Part shown: one piece after another, positions 2,361 through 9,054 of the stretch
Position numbering within the stretch: the first letter of the stretch is position 1
How the letters are laid out: every line of letters starts with the position of its first letter
Assembly (NCBI GenBank): GCA_965223665.1
Contig: OZ245011.1
Coordinates: 2,368,001-2,432,000, forward strand
Direction of reading: 5' to 3'
Length of the DNA: 64,000 nt
Source of the DNA: Nitrospinaceae bacterium
GTDB taxonomy: Bacteria > Nitrospinota > Nitrospinia > Nitrospinales > Nitrospinaceae
The notes under the pieces: model-generated
Databases searched by the model: none
What the model was told of the DNA's origin: nothing
The model's input: the letters and a program-made list of their open reading frames with translations, nothing else
Position numbers and translations under genes: made by a program

Positions 2361-2676
2361 TTATCGAATTCCACCAAGAAAGACAAATATAGTCGCCAAT
2401 TAACCTAATCGAATACCGTTAAAAGTTTATCCGAAGGAACCTTAAATTTCAATGAAAATTATTGTAATTTTAAATGCTCATCGATAGTTCTTTTTCAGCA
2501 AGAAATCCAATTCCATTATGTTTCTAACCTCAACCTTAGGTATTCGGAATTTAATTTAGCAGGCTTCAAATTATCCCTTCCATTTCCAATTTAAAATTAA
2601 TTCATTTAAAAATAATATGTTATGTGACATATTTTTCAATCCAACCAAATATTATCTCGAAAATTAAAAATTTTTA

Positions 2677-2705
2677 TTGCAATATCACCCATATATTGGT
2701 ATACA
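2677..2705 (+). promoter_or_regulatory. Putative sigma70-type promoter of the cas operon
   Basis: TTGCAA-17 nt-TATACA with TG extended -10, about 80 nt before the cas8e start. The -10 is imperfect. Confidence 0.35.
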
Positions 2706-2785
2706 GAATCGTTATTCCTAAGGTTGATACACTCAATAATTAAACTTAAATTTCAGTTACTCTGTCAATATTCATCACCAAAAAT

Positions 2786-4366
2786 ATGTTCAATTTAGTT
2801 GAGAATTGCTGGATACCAGTAAAAATGAAGGACGGATCAAATGAACTTATAAGACCATTTGATGTTACAAAAAATCTATCATCGAATCCCATAGTATCGT
2901 TATATGCCTGTCGTCCCGATTTTAATGGCGGGCTAATTCAGTTTCTAGTTGGGTTGGTACAAACTTCAATGACACCTAAAAACTCAGAGGAATGGAACAA
3001 TTATTTCCATAACCCACCCTCTACTTCTTTATTAAAGTTCAATTTCTCAAAATTAAAATACGCTTTTAATTTGGATGGGGAATTTCCCCGATTTATGCAG
3101 GAGGGAAACTTAGAAAACAACTCCAGAAAAACTATCAATTTTTTATTAATTGATTCTCCCGGAGAAAACACGATAAACAAAAACACAGATCTTTTTGTAA
3201 AGCGCAATCAATATTTAATGCAGTGCTATCCTTGTACAGCAACAGCATTATTTTGCTTAAATACATTTGCCCCTTCAGGTGGTTCAGGACATAGAACATC
3301 CATTCGGGGAGGAGGGCCGCTAACAACTGTAATTTTTGATCCAGAAAGCCTATGGAAAACAATTTGGTTAAACATTATTCCAGAAGATAAATGGCCAAAA
3401 ACTAATTGGAAATTAGATTCCCATTTAGATGCCCATATTTTCCCTTGGTTAAAATTTAAAAAAACCTTATTACAACCGGAAGAGATTCACCCCTTGCAAA
3501 TGTATTGGGGTCTTCCAAGAAGAATTCTATTAGATTTTCAGCTTGAATCCTATGGAACATGCCAACTGTGTGGCACTCAAAATCAAAAATTGGTCAAACA
3601 TTTTTTTACTGCAAAACATGGTTACCATTATAAAAACTTTCCTTTGCCTCATGTACTTAGTCCCTATATTAAAAAATCAAATAAAGAAATTTTTCCAAAG
3701 AAAAGCCCCGTTAATGATAATTCTTACAGACAATGGTTAGGACTAATTTTTAAAGACACAAAGTTAAATGTTAATCCCGCTTTTGCTGTCACAACATTTC
3801 TTCATGAAAAACCTCGATTTCCTTCTATCCGGCTTTGGTCTTTCGGATTTGTAATGAATAATATGAAACCGCTTAATTGGAAGGATTGGGAAATTCCATT
3901 ACTAATTCCATCAAAGGAATACATAGCAACATTCAAAAGTTTCATTAGTCAACTAATTCTAGCAGCTGACCATATCGCTACAATTATTTTTTCAAAATTA
4001 AACCATTCCTGGAAGTTAGACTCTAGCCAACCTAATCAGGAAATTGATAACCAAATCAAATATTTCTGGTATTCAACTGAATTCTACTTTTATAAGTTAT
4101 TGAACAAAGCCCTAATCCTGCTCCCCGATGATTCCAATCTAAATTTCTTAAAATTAGATTGGTTAAAAGCTATAAATCAAACTACAGAAAAATTATTCCA
4201 AATTCATTTTTCCAAAAGCCTTTTTAGAAAAAAAGATTTACGCAAAGAGTCTATCATTTGGAAAAACTTGATGTGGTATGCATCCGAGAAAAATCCAAAA
4301 CTAAGAAAGATTCTTTTATTACCGGATAATATTGAAAAAAATTATACCTTAAATTTTTTACGATGA
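2786..4366 (+). CDS. cas8e: Type I-E Cascade large subunit Cas8e (Cse1/CasA)
   Basis: FNLVENCWIPV start, RPDFNGGLIQFLVGLVQT, CYPC and CQLC Zn ligands, APSGGSGHRTSIRGGGPLTT loop, YWGLPRRI. Confidence 0.93.
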   Translation: MFNLVENCWIPVKMKDGSNELIRPFDVTKNLSSNPIVSLYACRPDFNGGLIQFLVGLVQTSMTPKNSEEWNNYFHNPPSTSLLKFNFSKLKYAFNLDGEFPRFMQEGNLENNSRKTINFLLIDSPGENTINKNTDLFVKRNQYLMQCYPCTATALFCLNTFAPSGGSGHRTSIRGGGPLTTVIFDPESLWKTIWLNIIPEDKWPKTNWKLDSHLDAHIFPWLKFKKTLLQPEEIHPLQMYWGLPRRILLDFQLESYGTCQLCGTQNQKLVKHFFTAKHGYHYKNFPLPHVLSPYIKKSNKEIFPKKSPVNDNSYRQWLGLIFKDTKLNVNPAFAVTTFLHEKPRFPSIRLWSFGFVMNNMKPLNWKDWEIPLLIPSKEYIATFKSFISQLILAADHIATIIFSKLNHSWKLDSSQPNQEIDNQIKYFWYSTEFYFYKLLNKALILLPDDSNLNFLKLDWLKAINQTTEKLFQIHFSKSLFRKKDLRKESIIWKNLMWYASEKNPKLRKILLLPDNIEKNYTLNFLR

Positions 4367-4878
4367 ATTCATCAATTCTAATTTTTAAAAAAAATAATAC
4401 TGAGGGACAAATTTTATTTACATGGTGGAATTTACTGCAAAACAATCATTTACAACTAACAGAGTTAATTCACTGCAAAACTTTAAATCAAGTTTTTTTG
4501 TGTCAAGGATTCTGGACTCTATATAAACAAGTGTATAAGAAGGAACCTAATATTTGCGAGGAAAGGCTTGCATTAATTGCTGGATTATTGCCCAAAATAA
4601 CAAATCATATAACAGGGATATCCATCCCTCAACGAATGGCTGCAGTTGTTCCTGGGCGTTGGAATTATCCATTAGTTAGTTATTCCAGGTTTATGCGTTT
4701 ATTAATGATAAATTCGAAGGAAGACTTATATAAATCTTTTTCAGAAAACTTAAGACTAATCCGTTATTCAGCAGACATTTTATCATTATCCAATGATCTT
4801 TATAATTGGGGAGAATCCGTTAAAAAGTTATACGCCATGGAATACTTTTTTAAGTCTCCCGAGACATATATTGAATAA
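4363..4878 (+). CDS. cse2: Type I-E Cascade small subunit Cas11 (Cse2/CasB)
   Basis: Position in operon with ATGA overlap. WW..L, RLALIAGLL, VSYSRFMRLL, LYNWG..VKK.YAMEYF features. Confidence 0.85.
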   Translation: MNSSILIFKKNNTEGQILFTWWNLLQNNHLQLTELIHCKTLNQVFLCQGFWTLYKQVYKKEPNICEERLALIAGLLPKITNHITGISIPQRMAAVVPGRWNYPLVSYSRFMRLLMINSKEDLYKSFSENLRLIRYSADILSLSNDLYNWGESVKKLYAMEYFFKSPETYIE

Positions 4879-4897
4879 GGATTAAACCAAAAATAAA

Positions 4898-5962
4898 ATG
4901 ACCCGTTTCCTGCAAATACATTTATTAACAGCTTACCCCCCTTCGAACCTGAATCGTGATGATCTAGGAAGACCCAAAACAGCGATTGTTGGAGGAACAA
5001 ATCGTCTTCGTATTTCTTCACAAAGTTTAAAAAGGGCATGGCGAACTTCAAATTTTTTCAAAGAATCCTTGTCAAAACATATAGGAATTCGGACTCGTTC
5101 AATGGGAAAAATAATTTTTCAAAAATTTTTAGATAGAGGTGTTTCAGCCACTCAAGCAAAAAAATGGACGGTTCAAATTTTGGGTACTTTTGGAAAAGTC
5201 AAAAAGGGGAAAGAAAATAGGTTTAATGAAGAACTGGAGATGGAACAATTGGTTCATTTTAGCCACGAAGAAGAAAAATCTATTAATACATTAATAAAAA
5301 CTTTAACGGAACAAAATAGAAGTCCAAACAAAGAAGAATTATTTTTATTAAGGAAAGAGAATAGTTCCATAGACATTGCTTTATTTGGAAGGATGCTTGC
5401 TGAAAACCCTTATTACAATTTCGAAGCAGCTGCACAGGTTGCACATGCATTCACCATTCAAAAAATTGCTCTTGAAGATGACTTTTTTACCGCTGTGGAT
5501 GATCTAAATATAGGTTCATCTTCCGCCGGCCATATCGGAAACAAAGAGTTTAGTTCGGGAATATTTTATTTATATATTTGCATCGATAAAGAACTGTTAC
5601 TCAAAAATTTAAATAACAATACAAAACTAGCTGTACAAGCTACGAATGCGTTAACTATGTCCGCTTCAAAAGTTTGTCCTGGGGGTCATCAAAATAGTTT
5701 TGGCCATTACGGATATGCCATGTTCTTGATGTCAGAAATTGGTAATTACCAGCCCCGTTCATTGGCCGCTGCATTTTTCGATCCAATCAAAGAAAATTAC
5801 CATCACCCTATGATTCAACAGGGAATTGATAAATTGTTCGATGTTCGTGAAAAAATAGACAACATATATGAGAAATGCGCCGAAGATTTTTATTTTTTTG
5901 ATGTGATGGCCAACAAAGGTAGTTTAAAAGAAACTTTAAACTTTCAGGAACAAACATTTTGA
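4898..5962 (+). CDS. cas7e: Type I-E Cascade backbone Cas7 (Cse4/CasC)
   Basis: FLQIHLLTAYPPSNLNRDDLGRPKTA, RLRISSQSLKRAWR, DIALFGRMLA, AAAQVAHAF, DFFTAVDDL, QPRSLAAAF. Confidence 0.97.
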   Translation: MTRFLQIHLLTAYPPSNLNRDDLGRPKTAIVGGTNRLRISSQSLKRAWRTSNFFKESLSKHIGIRTRSMGKIIFQKFLDRGVSATQAKKWTVQILGTFGKVKKGKENRFNEELEMEQLVHFSHEEEKSINTLIKTLTEQNRSPNKEELFLLRKENSSIDIALFGRMLAENPYYNFEAAAQVAHAFTIQKIALEDDFFTAVDDLNIGSSSAGHIGNKEFSSGIFYLYICIDKELLLKNLNNNTKLAVQATNALTMSASKVCPGGHQNSFGHYGYAMFLMSEIGNYQPRSLAAAFFDPIKENYHHPMIQQGIDKLFDVREKIDNIYEKCAEDFYFFDVMANKGSLKETLNFQEQTF

Positions 5963-6723
5963 ATCATTTAATTTTTACCTTATATAGCCCTTTGCAATCT
6001 TGGGGAACTATTGCGATTGGAGAAAGGAGGGAGACCTTTACTCATCCTTCAAAATCTTCAATCTTAGGTTTGGTTGGAGCATCGTTAGGGATACCCCGAA
6101 ACACATCCAAACCACATGTCATAGACCAACAACATCTTGAATTACAAAATTCCCTTGGATTCGCAGTTGCCATTCAGCAACCGGGCGTCTTGATCAGTGA
6201 TTTTCATACTACTCAAGTCTCAAAAAAAAATAGAACTCCTCTTATTTCTACCCGTATGGATGAAATAGAATTTTCAGCTTCAAATAAACCAAACATTTCT
6301 AATATTATTTCTTATAGAGATTATCTTTGTGATGCCATTTTTATTATTTGCTTATGGTGCAAAGACTCCAAATCACCTATTTCATTAGAAAAGATTTCTC
6401 GAACATTAAAACAACCTCAGGGAAATCTTTATTTGGGGAGAAAATCCTGTCCACCGGCCCTACCCCTCAACCCTCAAATAATAGAGGCCAAAAGCTTATA
6501 TGATGCATTCTTTTATTTTAAAAAAAGGAATCCGAATGAAATTATTTTTTCCAATAAAATCCTTTCCAATATTAAGGTATATTGGGACCATTATCCCAAC
6601 CACGGCATAGAAAATATTCGAGAAAAAAATACTCGCAGGGATCTTATCCTAAGTCGCTGTCGTTGGCAGTTTCAAAATCGGACTGAGTTTGGGGGAATCC
6701 TCTCGTGGAAGTCAAATTCTTAA
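5959..6723 (+). CDS. cas5e: Type I-E Cas5 (CasD), no HNH fusion
   Basis: LYSPLQSWG...RETFTHPSKSSILGLVGASLG, DFHT, RDYLCDA, LYLGRKSCPP. Confidence 0.95.
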   Translation: MNHLIFTLYSPLQSWGTIAIGERRETFTHPSKSSILGLVGASLGIPRNTSKPHVIDQQHLELQNSLGFAVAIQQPGVLISDFHTTQVSKKNRTPLISTRMDEIEFSASNKPNISNIISYRDYLCDAIFIICLWCKDSKSPISLEKISRTLKQPQGNLYLGRKSCPPALPLNPQIIEAKSLYDAFFYFKKRNPNEIIFSNKILSNIKVYWDHYPNHGIENIREKNTRRDLILSRCRWQFQNRTEFGGILSWKSNS

Positions 6724-6730
6724 GCGTCCT

Positions 6731-7399
6731 ATGTATATAAGCCAAATTCGTTTACATTCTAAAGTTGCTGATTCGAGACTACCAAAAGTGGTAATTGAAA
6801 ATAATTTATACGGTTTGCATCAATTGATCTGGAGTTTATTTAGAAGCGAAAAAAGAAACTTTCTATTTCGCATGGATCGTAAAACAGAATATATATCCTT
6901 CATTGTTGTTTCTAAAGTTCCTCCAAAAAATTCCAACAATTTATGGGAAATTCAAACCAAACCCTATCATCCCAAAATTTATCAGCATCAAACTTTAACT
7001 TTCAAACTTCGAGCCAACCCCATCAAAACCAAGAAAAACTTCGATAAAAAACAAAAAAGACACGATGTCGTTATGGAAAAGAAAAAAGAATTAAAAAATA
7101 AAAATGAGGAATTAAAGAAACCGTTCCTTTACAACCAATTAATCCAAAGCACTGGGTATCAATGGCTACAGGAACGAATGGGAAACCATGGGTTTAATGT
7201 AAAATTCGAAGAAGTGCGAATTGATGGTTATCTGCAGCACAGGTTTCAAAAGAAAAATCATTCCATCAAAATTAGTACACTAGAATACACTGGACAATTA
7301 ACTGTTCTAGACCCGGTTAAGCTTTCAAATAGTCTTTTTCAAGGTATCGGTCCTGCAAAAGGATTTGGTTGTGGATTGCTATTGGTAAAGAATCCATAA
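6731..7399 (+). CDS. cas6e: Type I-E crRNA endoribonuclease Cas6e (Cse3/CasE)
   Basis: MYISQIRL, YGLHQLIWSLF (catalytic His), FLFR, FKLRANP, C-terminal G-loop GIGPAKGFGCGLL. Confidence 0.95.
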   Translation: MYISQIRLHSKVADSRLPKVVIENNLYGLHQLIWSLFRSEKRNFLFRMDRKTEYISFIVVSKVPPKNSNNLWEIQTKPYHPKIYQHQTLTFKLRANPIKTKKNFDKKQKRHDVVMEKKKELKNKNEELKKPFLYNQLIQSTGYQWLQERMGNHGFNVKFEEVRIDGYLQHRFQKKNHSIKISTLEYTGQLTVLDPVKLSNSLFQGIGPAKGFGCGLLLVKNP

Positions 7400-7401
7400 G
7401 A

Positions 7402-7489
7402 ACGTTCCCCATTTTATGGGGATGAACCGGTTGATGTCAGAAAAAGGCAGTTTATTCTTAATTGTTCCCCACTTTGTGGGGAGATTTTT
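7402..7489 (+). CRISPR. Minimal type I-E CRISPR array: 2 repeats and one 32-nt spacer
   Basis: Repeat 1 at 7402-7429, ACGTTCCCCATTTTATGGGGATGAACCG, has the I-E-type GTTCCCC...GGGGAT(G/A)AACCG form. Spacer 7430-7461 is GTTGATGTCAGAAAAAGGCAGTTTATTCTTAA. Repeat 2 from 7462, TTGTTCCCCACTTTGTGGGGAG, has a degenerate 3' tail. Confidence 0.88.
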
Positions 7490-7491
7490 AA

Positions 7492-7710
7492 TTAGCCTAT
7501 ATATTGAGCCAAAATTTTTACATCTTGATAGTAGTTGGCACCTTTACGATCACTATTGATACCTTCAGCAAGTTCAGCGGCCCTTTCCTCGGAAATACCT
7601 AAAGCTCCAGCTAAATAATCGGCTAATACCTTATTATCGGCATAATAATCTGCCCCAGAGCGATCCTCTAAAATGTTTTTGGCTACATTTAATGTGTTAT
7701 CATTTTCCAT
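7492..7710 (-). CDS. 72-aa acidic hypothetical protein with internal tandem duplication
   Basis: GGAGGGG RBS just upstream of ATG 7710. Two copies of DRxGAxYYxDxKxLAxY. Confidence 0.75.
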   Translation of the reverse strand: MENDNTLNVAKNILEDRSGADYYADNKVLADYLAGALGISEERAAELAEGINSDRKGANYYQDVKILAQYIG

Positions 7711-8048
7711 TTTCCCCTCCAAAATAAATTTACAAGAAGTTTATCATAGTCTCCCAATCACTTATAAGAGGACAAAAAACATTTTTTCAAAAATCTATTT
7801 CTTCAAACATTGCTTCTCAGGTTTTAAGTTTTATTTTTCAATTTAAACAGCACGGTAAACCAGATTCTTAATAAGGAAATGAAGTAAAGGGAAAAAGTCA
7901 AACTCTTTCGGACCATTTTGTGTTATTTACGGGGACATAAGGGGGAAGTGATCGGAAATCTAGAAAAAAAATTACAAAATGTTAGGAAATTTCACCAACA
8001 GAATCGAAAGGAATGAAAGTAAGAAGGGTAAACAATTGAAACACAAGA

Positions 8049-8121
<73 letters not shown>

Positions 8122-8156
8122 TTCCGAAAAAACGCTTTAGCGCCAAAGAAAGAGGG

Positions 8157-8185
8157 AAGTTAACACAAACCCAAAACCCTGTCAA
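8157..8185 (-). promoter_or_regulatory. sigma70 promoter of tRNA-Phe
   Basis: TTGACA-17 nt-TAACTT on the minus strand, ending about 35 nt upstream of the tRNA 5' end. Confidence 0.6.
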
Positions 8186-8286
8186 TTGGTATCCCTGCGT
8201 CGCTTTTTCCGAAAAAACCTTGTTTTCTCTGGTATAATCCCATGCAAGATAGGCAAATTTGGTTAAATTTTAACTATAGGCCCACC

Positions 8287-8526
8287 ATGCTTGTACTGAC
8301 CCGAAAAATCGGCGAGAGTATCCAAATTAATGAGGATGTCAAGATTACGGTCATTGACATCAAAGGAAAAAATATCCGATTAGGCATTGAAGCCCCGAAG
8401 GATACAAAAATTTATCGCGAAGAAGTGTTTTTAAAGATTAAGGAAGAGAACAAATCTGCCGCTACGTCTACTGAGTTTGATTTAACCAAGGTCAGTGAAT
8501 TAGTAAAAAACAATTTGAAGCGATGA
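8287..8526 (+). CDS. csrA: Carbon storage regulator CsrA
   Basis: MLVLTRKIGESIQI...IRLGIEAPKDTKIYREE with the long C-terminal tail typical of FliW-regulated CsrA. True start is ATG 8287. Confidence 0.96.
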   Translation: MLVLTRKIGESIQINEDVKITVIDIKGKNIRLGIEAPKDTKIYREEVFLKIKEENKSAATSTEFDLTKVSELVKNNLKR

Positions 8527-8990
8527 ATTTTCAGACAACTCGATTTGGACTCATCGAAGTCGATGAGACCAACGTCATTCATTTTCCTGAAGGACTATAT
8601 GGTTTTGAGGGTGAGGAAAAGTTCGCCCTACTGCCTTTTGATCCTAATGTAGAGTGTCCTCTCCAGTGGATGCAGTCTTTGCAGACTCCGGACTTGGCTT
8701 TTGTAGTAACCAATCCTTTTATTTACAAACCAGATTATAAACTCAATCTTACAGATGATGACAAGAAAAGAATTGGGGTGGAAGAAGATGATACTATCTC
8801 AGTTCTCGTAATCGTAAAAATTCCGTCAGAATTTGTAAACATGACTGCTAATTTAATTGCCCCCCTTGTAGTCAATAATCGAAATTTGGTTTGTAAACAA
8901 TTTGTGATGACTACTCTGGAATATGACACTCAGCATTACCTACTACCCGAGGAATTAAGAGAAAACACAGCCGCGGTAGGATCTGCTTAA
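8523..8990 (+). CDS. fliW: Flagellar assembly factor FliW
   Basis: TTRFG...IHFPEGLYGFE, WMQS, LAFVVTNPF, MTANLIAPLVVN. Coupled to csrA. Confidence 0.94.
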   Translation: MNFQTTRFGLIEVDETNVIHFPEGLYGFEGEEKFALLPFDPNVECPLQWMQSLQTPDLAFVVTNPFIYKPDYKLNLTDDDKKRIGVEEDDTISVLVIVKIPSEFVNMTANLIAPLVVNNRNLVCKQFVMTTLEYDTQHYLLPEELRENTAAVGSA

Positions 8991-9054
8991 ACTTTCTAAA
9001 ACTTTTCTAACTTAGGTTTGAAAATTAGAGTTAAGGAGATTACTTGCTTCGTGG

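Follow-up and report, generated by a model that had tools for sequence, protein, structure and literature searches.

A putative single-guide mini-array at the 3' end of an orphan type I-E Cascade operon in Nitrospinaceae

Results

An orphan type I-E Cascade operon in two species

The DNA analysed here, called the window, is a stretch of 64,000 nucleotides (nt) from a Nitrospinaceae genome of 4.35 Mb with 38% G+C (contig OZ245011.1; G000:C1:2368001-2432000). The element under study is a CRISPR mini-array, consisting of two repeats and one spacer, which lies right behind an operon for the type I-E CRISPR-associated complex for antiviral defence (Cascade). The operon occupies 2786-7399 on the plus strand in the order cas8e-cse2-cas7e-cas5e-cas6e, and its genes overlap or are at most 19 nt apart. 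The Cascade gene set is complete, with all five products scoring above the curated NCBIfam cut-offs, and Pfam agreed except for cse2 (Table 1). The longest open reading frame (ORF) of cas6e starts at TTG 6689. The LYGLHQ motif of Cas6e aligns with ..LYQLHQ.. of Escherichia coli CasE, and the histidine aligned to His20, which we take to be the catalytic residue, is kept. No HNH domain was found fused to Cas5 (254 amino acids) and no PD-(D/E)xK domain to Cse2 (171 amino acids), nor was any extra Pfam domain seen.

No cas3, cas1 or cas2 was found in the cas locus of the window. Neither does cas1 or cas2 follow cas6e in the window or in its sister species (G001), a Nitrospinaceae metagenome-assembled genome (MAG) that carries the whole region in the same order at approximately 80% DNA identity. 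For comparison, 80 related I-E loci were fetched by Cas6e alignment, 54 of them with a dominant repeat; the canonical loci among them (e.g. L034 and L035) have cas1 and cas2 directly after cas6e. The window genome does contain one Cas3 and one Cas1, approximately 307 kb away, beside a long array with an unrelated 32-nt repeat, a locus that we take to resemble subtype I-C. In the sister species, no Cas3 scored above the cut-off with either the core or the HD model, and the only Cas1 adjoins an array of unrelated 36-nt repeats. Since cas3, cas1 and cas2 are missing from the locus and the other Cas1 proteins, together with the Cas3 of the window genome, sit by unrelated arrays, the mini-array and its I-E Cascade are orphaned in both genomes. 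No other CRISPR component is shared by the two.

The distant locus of the window genome (L007:2448-14800; G000:C1 approximately 2,681,400-2,693,800) comprises cas3, cas1 and the long 32-nt-repeat array. The ORFs between its cas3 and cas1 look split into pieces of 90-280 amino acids, and some effector genes may be broken.

Anatomy of the mini-array

A sequence-only reading of this DNA had placed repeat 1 two nucleotides after the cas6e stop codon, and the canonical repeat frame gives the same result: the stop codon TAA lies at 7397-7399 and repeat 1 starts at 7402, leaving a 2-nt gap and no leader. A repeat search of the window returned two copies of 19 nt, 89% identical, with a period of 60 nt. 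Repeat 1 reads GTTCCCCATTTTATGGGGA at 7404-7422 and forms hairpin 1 (TCCCCAT-TTT-ATGGGGA), followed by the 8-nt handle ATGAACCG at 7422-7429. Repeat 2 reads GTTCCCCACTTTGTGGGGA at 7464-7482 and is followed by GATTTTTAATT; its hairpin 2 (TCCCCAC-TTT-GTGGGGA, 7465-7482) is kept, whereas the handle is gone and a T-run stands instead. Compared with a repeat of a 7-bp stem, a 4-nt loop and an 8-nt handle, repeat 1 has the stem, the handle and a loop of only 3 nt, and repeat 2 lacks the handle. The arrangement is that of CreR and the regulatory mini-arrays, namely two repeat-like units around one spacer, the proximal one with its handle kept and the distal one degenerate but with a hairpin.

The related loci were then used as a standard. 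A search of 5.8 billion proteins yielded only one Cas6e with more than 48% identity. All of the 54 relatives with a dominant repeat have a 7-bp stem with a 4-nt loop, and in 51 of 53 loci GGGG is followed by the 8 nt ATGAACCG, the same as in repeat 1. The earlier statement that the handle is kept in repeat 1 and lost in repeat 2 is thereby borne out. Going by stem and handle, repeat 1 is a genuine I-E repeat whose 3-nt loop is unusual. The loops of both repeats have 3 nt in the window genome; in the sister species the loop of repeat 2 has 4 nt (CCTA versus TTT), so that the short loop, described beforehand as a peculiarity of the array, is kept between species in repeat 1 only. The two stems differ solely at the loop-closing pair, T-A versus C-G. 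The reading had regarded this difference as a compensatory substitution. Going by the related repeats, the compensatory pair is real and the 7-bp stem is preserved, but the change is not a local event: it is old, family-wide covariation, because the 54 relatives already show C-G (48), U.G (5) and U-A (1) at this position.

Several observations on the relatives are recorded here. In the array right after cas6e of L068 (L068:1540-1960), the stem of the first repeat is the CAT...ATG variant seen in repeat 1 of the window, and spacers 1 and 3 are copies of one another that have diverged. In a Pseudomonadota MAG, a complete I-E locus (L088:8440-8540) carries a two-repeat mini-array between cas6e and cas1, besides its main array. 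A weak Cas6e match in G007, a genome of the same family, was set aside as part of a canonical cas6e-cas1 locus.

No further copy of the repeat exists in the 4.35-Mb genome, and allowing up to 3 substitutions returned scattered single matches only. A search of 6000-9000 against Rfam with E values up to 1 found no CRISPR repeat family, tRNA-Phe being the sole hit. One objection is that an originally longer array had collapsed in the assembly. In one sample, contigs of four runs span 7053-8024 with no gap and no deviating letter over the mini-array, and the sister species, assembled independently, also has exactly two repeats. The objection is unsupported because the run contigs bridge the element and the independent assembly agrees, and the mini-array is not a collapsed longer array.

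A promoter scan of 6308-7400 found no promoter-like site on the plus strand. On the minus strand, spacer positions 6-11 and the repeat 1 loop overlap with a promoter-like site (CTGACA-18-TAAAAT, 10/12). In the terminator scan, hairpin 2 with ATTTTTAATT scored as terminator-like on the plus strand and hairpin 1 with ACGTTCTTAT on the minus strand; terminator-like sites were not enriched in the scanned region, with 3 seen versus 3.8 expected.

Purifying selection on the operon and on one guide

Gene order at the locus is conserved between the window and the sister species over approximately 14 kb. The five cas genes are intact in both species, with ratios of nonsynonymous to synonymous substitution rates (dN/dS) of 0.06-0.22, a proportion of synonymous differences (pS) of 0.40-0.60 and a dS of approximately 0.6-1.2. 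Across this distance, repeat 1 is 93% identical (26/28) and the spacer 81% (26/32). The differences in the spacer are confined to its half distal to the protospacer-adjacent motif (PAM), where 6 of 16 positions differ, while none differs in positions 1-16. The intergenic DNA at 7723-8048, taken as a neutral comparison region, is only approximately 45% identical. Since the stems, the handle and spacer positions 1-16 are unchanged against this background, the parts needed for one guide are under purifying selection in the comparison of the two species, and the constraint on the guide falls on its 5' half. The inference of the sequence-only reading that selection maintains a single guide is strengthened accordingly, the flanking genes having accumulated approximately 40-60% synonymous differences over the same time. 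A qualification applies to it: terminal repeats ordinarily lose their handle in any case.

PAM-flanked partial matches upstream of the operon

The genome was scanned for partial spacer matches next to the PAM AAG. The best candidate, site c, lies in the 425-nt region that separates cas8e from the divergent porin gene, within the largest conserved island of that region (2518-2550). Its paired part, GTTGAGGTTAGAAACA, matches spacer positions 1-5, 7-8, 10-14 and 16, with mismatches at 6, 9 and 15. In the consulted portions of Liu et al. (bioRxiv 10.1101/2023.03.10.532045) and Shmakov et al. (PMC10120712), position 6 is described as flipped out and unpaired in I-E and I-F Cascades. Within positions 1-16, the same span that is conserved in the spacer, 12 of the 14 non-flipped positions are paired. 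Site c is the top match in the sister species too, and its PAM and 16 nt differ there only at 2529, which corresponds to position 6. Only three sites in the genome combine AAG with pairing at 12 or more of the 14 positions, and the chance of one falling in the 425-nt region is approximately 3e-4 (hand arithmetic). The PAM with seed positions 1-5, AAGGTTGA, was counted 195 times over 8.7 million positions; two of these fall in the 425-nt region, where 0.019 are expected (P(>=2) = 1.8e-4).

The second of these two occurrences, site e, matches the seed only and belongs to the block AAGGTTGATA at 2720-2729, which is conserved in the sister species. It would lie just downstream of the putative cas8e promoter, TTGCAA-17-TGGTATACA, which we predict from the conserved blocks 2671-2681 and 2694-2710; the consensus promoter scan did not list this promoter (2677-2705).

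A third site, orthologous in both species, combines AAG with pairing at positions 1-5, 7-10 and 14-16. It lies approximately 485 kb away, in a conserved palindrome over a -35-like box upstream of an XRE-family gene; a protein operator could equally explain its conservation. Upstream of this XRE-family helix-turn-helix gene (L116:1470-1530; G000:C1 approximately 2,857,660-2,857,725), the two arms of a perfect 14-bp inverted repeat, CTTTAGTTTTTTTA / TAAAAAAACTAAAG, flank GTTGACTTCAAC. The surrounding 140-nt stretch is nearly identical in the sister species and carries an AAG-flanked seed match to the spacer.

Searches for longer matches were negative. For the full-length spacer, no second genome site was found at up to 8-9 mismatches, bar one AT-rich site with 9 mismatches. 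With a 16-mer of the spacer and up to 2 mismatches, 7 non-self sites were found in the window genome versus 5 with the reversed control, and 8 versus 6 in the sister genome, none of them with AAG. The pattern AAGGTTGANGTYA occurred 3 times versus 4 in the control in the window genome and 2 versus 4 in the sister genome; it is not enriched, and only the location and conservation of its occurrences are notable. Among 50,697 phage records, the best spacer match had an E value of 0.9 and came from unrelated hosts. IMG/VR gave six matches to PAM and seed, none extending past spacer position 16, and contigs of JGI metagenomes gave no match to either of two patterns. In 7481-8300, which includes the promoter of the adjacent ORF orf76, the best spacer match was 9/14 without AAG. 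The porin upstream regions of eight Cascade-less relatives could not be aligned with this intergenic region; AAGGTTGA occurs in two of the eight in the opposite orientation, and the comparison was judged uninformative.

Comparison with known systems

The closest known counterparts are CreR of the Salmonella enterica I-E system and other I-E regulatory mini-arrays. In the consulted portions of the two reports cited above (10.1101/2023.03.10.532045; PMC10120712), these have a proximal repeat with a handle, a degenerate distal repeat and the PAM AAG, and a partial seed-side match near the cas8/casA promoter, with autorepression of Cascade predicted or measured; the Salmonella CreR lies between cas3 and cas8e, and its match runs over 15 consecutive nt. 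The element in the window resembles CreR in having two repeat-like units and one spacer, the first unit with the 8-nt handle and the second with the hairpin only, and the PAM AAG. The 5' end of its spacer likewise partially matches the region upstream of cas8e/casA, and no cleavage is expected. Unlike CreR, it follows cas6e directly with a 2-nt gap and no leader instead of lying between cas3 and cas8e, its match is interrupted (12/14 pairing positions within 1-16) instead of consecutive, and its repeat 1 has a 3-nt loop. Competition with defence CRISPR RNAs (crRNAs) is the published rationale for CreR in the same portions of these sources (10.1101/2023.03.10.532045; PMC10120712). In contrast, the window locus lacks cas3, cas1-2 and a canonical array, and has no defence crRNAs to compete with a regulator. 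The constrained cas genes, the retained histidine of Cas6e, the PAM-flanked partial target upstream of the operon and the CreR-like repeat pattern together support the suggested likeness to CRISPR-resembling regulatory RNAs.

CreTA, from the type I-B system of Haloarcula hispanica, is a CRISPR-repressed toxin-antitoxin that can make Cascade genes indispensable, as stated in the part of the published work consulted. There, too, the guide comes from a degenerate mini-CRISPR and sends Cascade to a promoter by a partial match, as predicted for the window. Unlike CreTA, no toxin gene or RNA was found at the window locus, and the subtype is I-E instead of I-B.

Type I derivatives without Cas3 include I-E2 (Cas5-HNH), I-E3 (Cas11-PD-(D/E)xK), and I-E5 and other CRISPR-associated transposons (CASTs), according to the portion of Makarova et al. 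2025 (PMC12669027) consulted. The window locus shares with I-E2, I-E3 and I-E5 an I-E Cascade lacking Cas3. Its Cas5 and Cse2 have no fused nuclease domain, unlike I-E2 and I-E3, and, unlike CASTs, it has no transposase neighbour and is syntenic in two species. In Streptomyces, an I-E variant that lacks Cas3 has a STAND NTPase. The literature consulted in part, exclusive of supplementary lists that may hold similar loci, yielded no nuclease-free orphan I-E Cascade with a regulatory mini-array as its only guide. On the reading favoured below, the element is of a known kind, a CreR-like regulatory crRNA as described in 2023; what is new is the setting, at the 3' end of the operon, with no leader, as the sole guide of a nuclease-free Cascade.

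Similar loci in Methanoregula-type archaea

In the Methanoregula-type loci L047, L043 and L050, and in L075 and L068 on short contigs, degenerate mini-arrays lie close behind cas6e, in cas8e-cas6e operons that neither cas1 nor cas2 follows. The arrays at L047:10664-10890, L075:552-790, L043:5470-5560 and L050:3140-3225 have 2-4 degenerate repeats and other spacers. The first repeat begins 1-5 nt after the cas6e stop codon in L047 and L075, two L047 spacers recur in diverged form in L075, and the "spacers" of L043 and L050 are unusually short (approximately 20-25 nt). L047 belongs to a complete chromosome, in which the operon lies between hydrogenase and ParA-like genes and no Cas3 reaching the cut-off was found. 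The archaeal loci are thus like the window in having a Cascade-only operon with no cas1-2 after it, repeats right behind cas6e and spacers conserved between genomes, and unlike it in the number of repeats, in the spacers and in the absence of a match between these spacers and their own cas8e upstream regions. The partial literature gave no description of an orphan Cascade with a mini-array of this Methanoregula type.

In a quick Cas7 tree of 73 rows with a near-full-length Cas7 match (midpoint root; branch support by the Shimodaira-Hasegawa-like approximate likelihood-ratio test, SH-aLRT, only), the archaeal orphans nest inside canonical Methanoregulaceae systems, while the Nitrospinaceae pair branches elsewhere on a stem of 1.06 substitutions per site. 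Such a tree suggests at least two independent origins of an orphan Cascade with a mini-array.

For two of the three L047 spacers, the best partial matches within the locus (1623-1654 and 1814-1845) fall in the same 245-nt intergenic region, which precedes an F420-hydrogenase-like operon. Each is 11/14, one with AAG; approximately 1.6 such matches per spacer are expected in 20 kb, which makes this a hint only.

Neighbouring genes

Upstream of the Cascade operon lie a gene resembling the formylglycine-generating enzyme (FGE)-sulfatase family, a gene for a leucine-rich repeat (LRR) protein and the divergent porin-like gene; downstream lie orf76, a convergent ORF of 72 amino acids, then tRNA-Phe, csrA and fliW. 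No transposase was found among the annotated neighbours. Of 21 family genomes, only the two with the orphan Cascade contain orf76, which had no match in Pfam, PHROGs or Atlas. Its product has an internal duplication (R-S/K-G-A-D/N-Y-Y ... L-A-D/Q-Y) and one further relative at 55% identity. At 8049-8990, tRNA-Phe is followed by the csrA-fliW pair; the CsrA protein is 100% identical between the two species, and the dS of its gene is only 0.07, far below that of the neighbouring genes.

Table 1. Features of the mini-array, the Cascade operon and its flanks (window coordinates)
Feature	Position	Strand	Remarks
Candidate target site c	2503-2537	-	PAM AAG 2537-2535; protospacer 2534-2503; paired part 2534-2519
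Predicted cas8e promoter	2677-2705	+	TTGCAA 2677-2682, 17-nt spacing, TGG-TATACA; -10 at 2700-2705, upstream TG
Candidate PAM + seed site e	2720-2728	+	AAG + GTTGAT (spacer 1-6 only), approximately 15 nt downstream of predicted -10
cas8e (cse1), 526 amino acids	2786-4366	+	Pfam CRISPR_Cse1 E 1.4e-76; NCBIfam casA_cse1 188 bits (cut-off 70); dN/dS 0.17
cse2 (cas11), 171 amino acids	4363-4878	+	NCBIfam casB_cse2 35.7 bits (cut-off 28.5); Pfam below cut-off; dN/dS 0.16
cas7e, 354 amino acids	4898-5962	+	Pfam Cas_CT1975 E 7.7e-92; NCBIfam casC 299 bits; dN/dS 0.06
cas5e, 254 amino acids	5959-6723	+	Pfam Cas_Cas5d residues 4-239; NCBIfam casD 154.8 bits; dN/dS 0.18
cas6e (casE), 222 amino acids from ATG 6731	6731-7399	+	Pfam E 1.4e-46; NCBIfam casE 146.7 bits; dN/dS 0.22
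Repeat 1	7402-7429	+	7-bp stem, 3-nt loop, handle ATGAACCG; 26/28 nt identical in sister species
Spacer (guide), 32 nt	7430-7461	+	26/32 nt identical in sister species; positions 1-16 all identical
Repeat 2, hairpin part only	7462-7482	+	Stem TCCCCAC/GTGGGGA identical in sister species
T-rich tail in place of handle	7483-7491	+	With hairpin 2 scores as terminator-like
orf76, convergent ORF of 72 amino acids	7492-7710	-	Stop codon abuts repeat 2 tail; dN/dS 0.15

Discussion

We consider it probable, with moderate confidence, that the mini-array is a single-guide gene of the CreR type, that it is fused to a nuclease-free I-E Cascade operon at the 3' end of the latter, and that it steers Cascade to its own upstream region. 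The anatomy of the element, its conservation, the purifying selection, the absence of I-E-type cas3, cas1 and cas2 and the PAM and seed matches are the observations to be explained; co-transcription, Cas6e processing, loading onto Cascade, binding and repression are the steps that we infer. The operon cas8e-cse2-cas7-cas5-cas6e would be transcribed from the promoter predicted at approximately 2677-2705, and transcription would run into repeat 1 and end at hairpin 2 with its U-run. Cas6e would cut between G7421 and A7422, and after G7481 if the transcript continues. The released crRNA would have 60 nt (7422-7481), made up of the 8-nt handle, the 32-nt spacer and a 20-nt hairpin, and it would be the sole guide available to this Cascade. 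Cascade should bind DNA without cutting, because neither species has a matching Cas3 and only approximately 16 nt of the guide are constrained. In the consulted part of the published E. coli work, AAG with 5 bp suffices for Cascade binding in vivo, and interference needs more than 18 bp. Binding would be expected at AAG-flanked partial sites, with the site at 2503-2537 between cas8e and the divergent porin gene as the best candidate and the seed-only site at 2720-2728, just downstream of the predicted cas promoter, as another. The operon would thereby be subject to negative feedback, and the porin gene or other host genes might be controlled as well.

Several points speak against this proposal. 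The minimum-free-energy fold of the 101-nt stretch 7395-7495 pairs repeat 1 with repeat 2 across the spacer, and the two local hairpins appear in the centroid fold only (z-score -1.76). Site c is imperfect, with mismatches at 9 and 15, and its match falls short of the 15 consecutive nt in the Salmonella CreR; it also lies approximately 140 nt upstream of the predicted -35, and the promoter is itself a prediction. Sites c and e share an extended motif, AT[AT]CC[TA]AAGGTTGA, which is longer than Cascade should read, so a protein regulator could explain the conservation of both sites. Seed-only off-target binding of Cascade in E. coli left local expression unchanged, as far as the portion of that work consulted states. 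With only two species carrying the locus, covariation between spacer and target is not scorable. Finally, a purely self-repressing Cascade makes little sense, so that another output must exist; the useful output may be autoregulation alone, control of host genes, or addiction.

A wider version of the proposal is more tentative, and we put it forward as a possibility short of a likelihood. Cascade may have been domesticated as a nuclease-free, RNA-guided transcription factor, with a single guide in the 3' end of its own mRNA, which controls itself and host genes such as the porin gene and the XRE-family gene approximately 485 kb away, and which has arisen independently in Methanoregula-type archaea.

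Among the alternatives, the locus could be a decaying I-E remnant that has lost cas3, cas1-2 and all but one spacer, leaving two repeats without present function. Degeneration of the last repeat is ordinary in arrays, and no full-length protospacer was found in the genome, in phages or in viral contigs, both of which suit a remnant. However, decay is difficult to reconcile with five intact genes at dN/dS 0.06-0.22 despite a dS of approximately 0.6-1.2, or with two stems and 16 consecutive spacer bases that are unchanged while nearby non-coding DNA has fallen to approximately 45% identity. The long stem branch of Cas7 (1.06 substitutions per site) further indicates an old lineage, and we regard a functionless remnant as unlikely.

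It is slightly harder still to credit a CreTA-like addiction module, in which the guide holds Cascade at a promoter that drives a toxic gene or RNA. Such a module would explain why Cascade survives without cas3, cas1 and cas2, because cells could not lose the Cascade genes, and would account for purifying selection on a Cascade that otherwise has no purpose. CreA guides have the same architecture and act via partial matches too, in the consulted part of the published work, and orf76, a small genus-specific ORF, abuts the mini-array. Nevertheless, the best spacer match around orf76 and its promoter (7481-8300) was only 9/14 and without AAG, reading of the alignment showed next to site c no mini-ORF that both species conserve, and no toxin family was detected. 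A small RNA toxin may still be involved.

Defence independent of Cas3, with the spacer as a fixed memory of one mobile element that is silenced by Cascade binding, as thought for type IV-A, seems to us very unlikely. A nuclease-free yet conserved Cascade would fit it, and type IV-A apparently works by inhibiting transcription, as the consulted portion of Makarova et al. 2025 (PMC12669027) has it. In contrast, the PAM-distal half of the spacer has drifted (6/16), unlike what a full-length target would impose, and no target was found in the 50,697 phage records, while the six IMG/VR matches stop by position 16. Least probable of all is that the hairpins are only terminators between the convergent cas operon and orf76, with their CRISPR ancestry irrelevant: hairpin 2 with ATTTTTAATT on the plus strand and hairpin 1 with ACGTTCTTAT on the minus strand do score as terminator-like, but termination needs neither the exact ATGAACCG handle nor the 32-nt spacing nor the conserved 16-nt 5' half of the spacer, three such sites versus 3.8 expected is no enrichment, and a terminator role is compatible with a single-guide gene and does not replace it.

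Known regulatory mini-CRISPRs are accessories of complete immune systems and tune Cas levels to the pool of defence crRNAs. At the window locus the immune parts are gone, and a DNA-binding complex with its putative regulatory guide has been kept, constrained in two species and with a parallel in archaea. Such loci are missed by surveys because array finders need three repeats and because the published census of type I mini-arrays was anchored on Cas3. Should the guide be produced and Cascade occupy the predicted sites, the locus would clearly exemplify an immune effector recruited as a gene regulator or as an addiction module, and its design would be compact, with guide and effector coming from one transcript. 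Under the same conditions, this Nitrospinaceae locus would represent a natural form of CRISPR interference ("CRISPRi") built from a type I-E Cascade.

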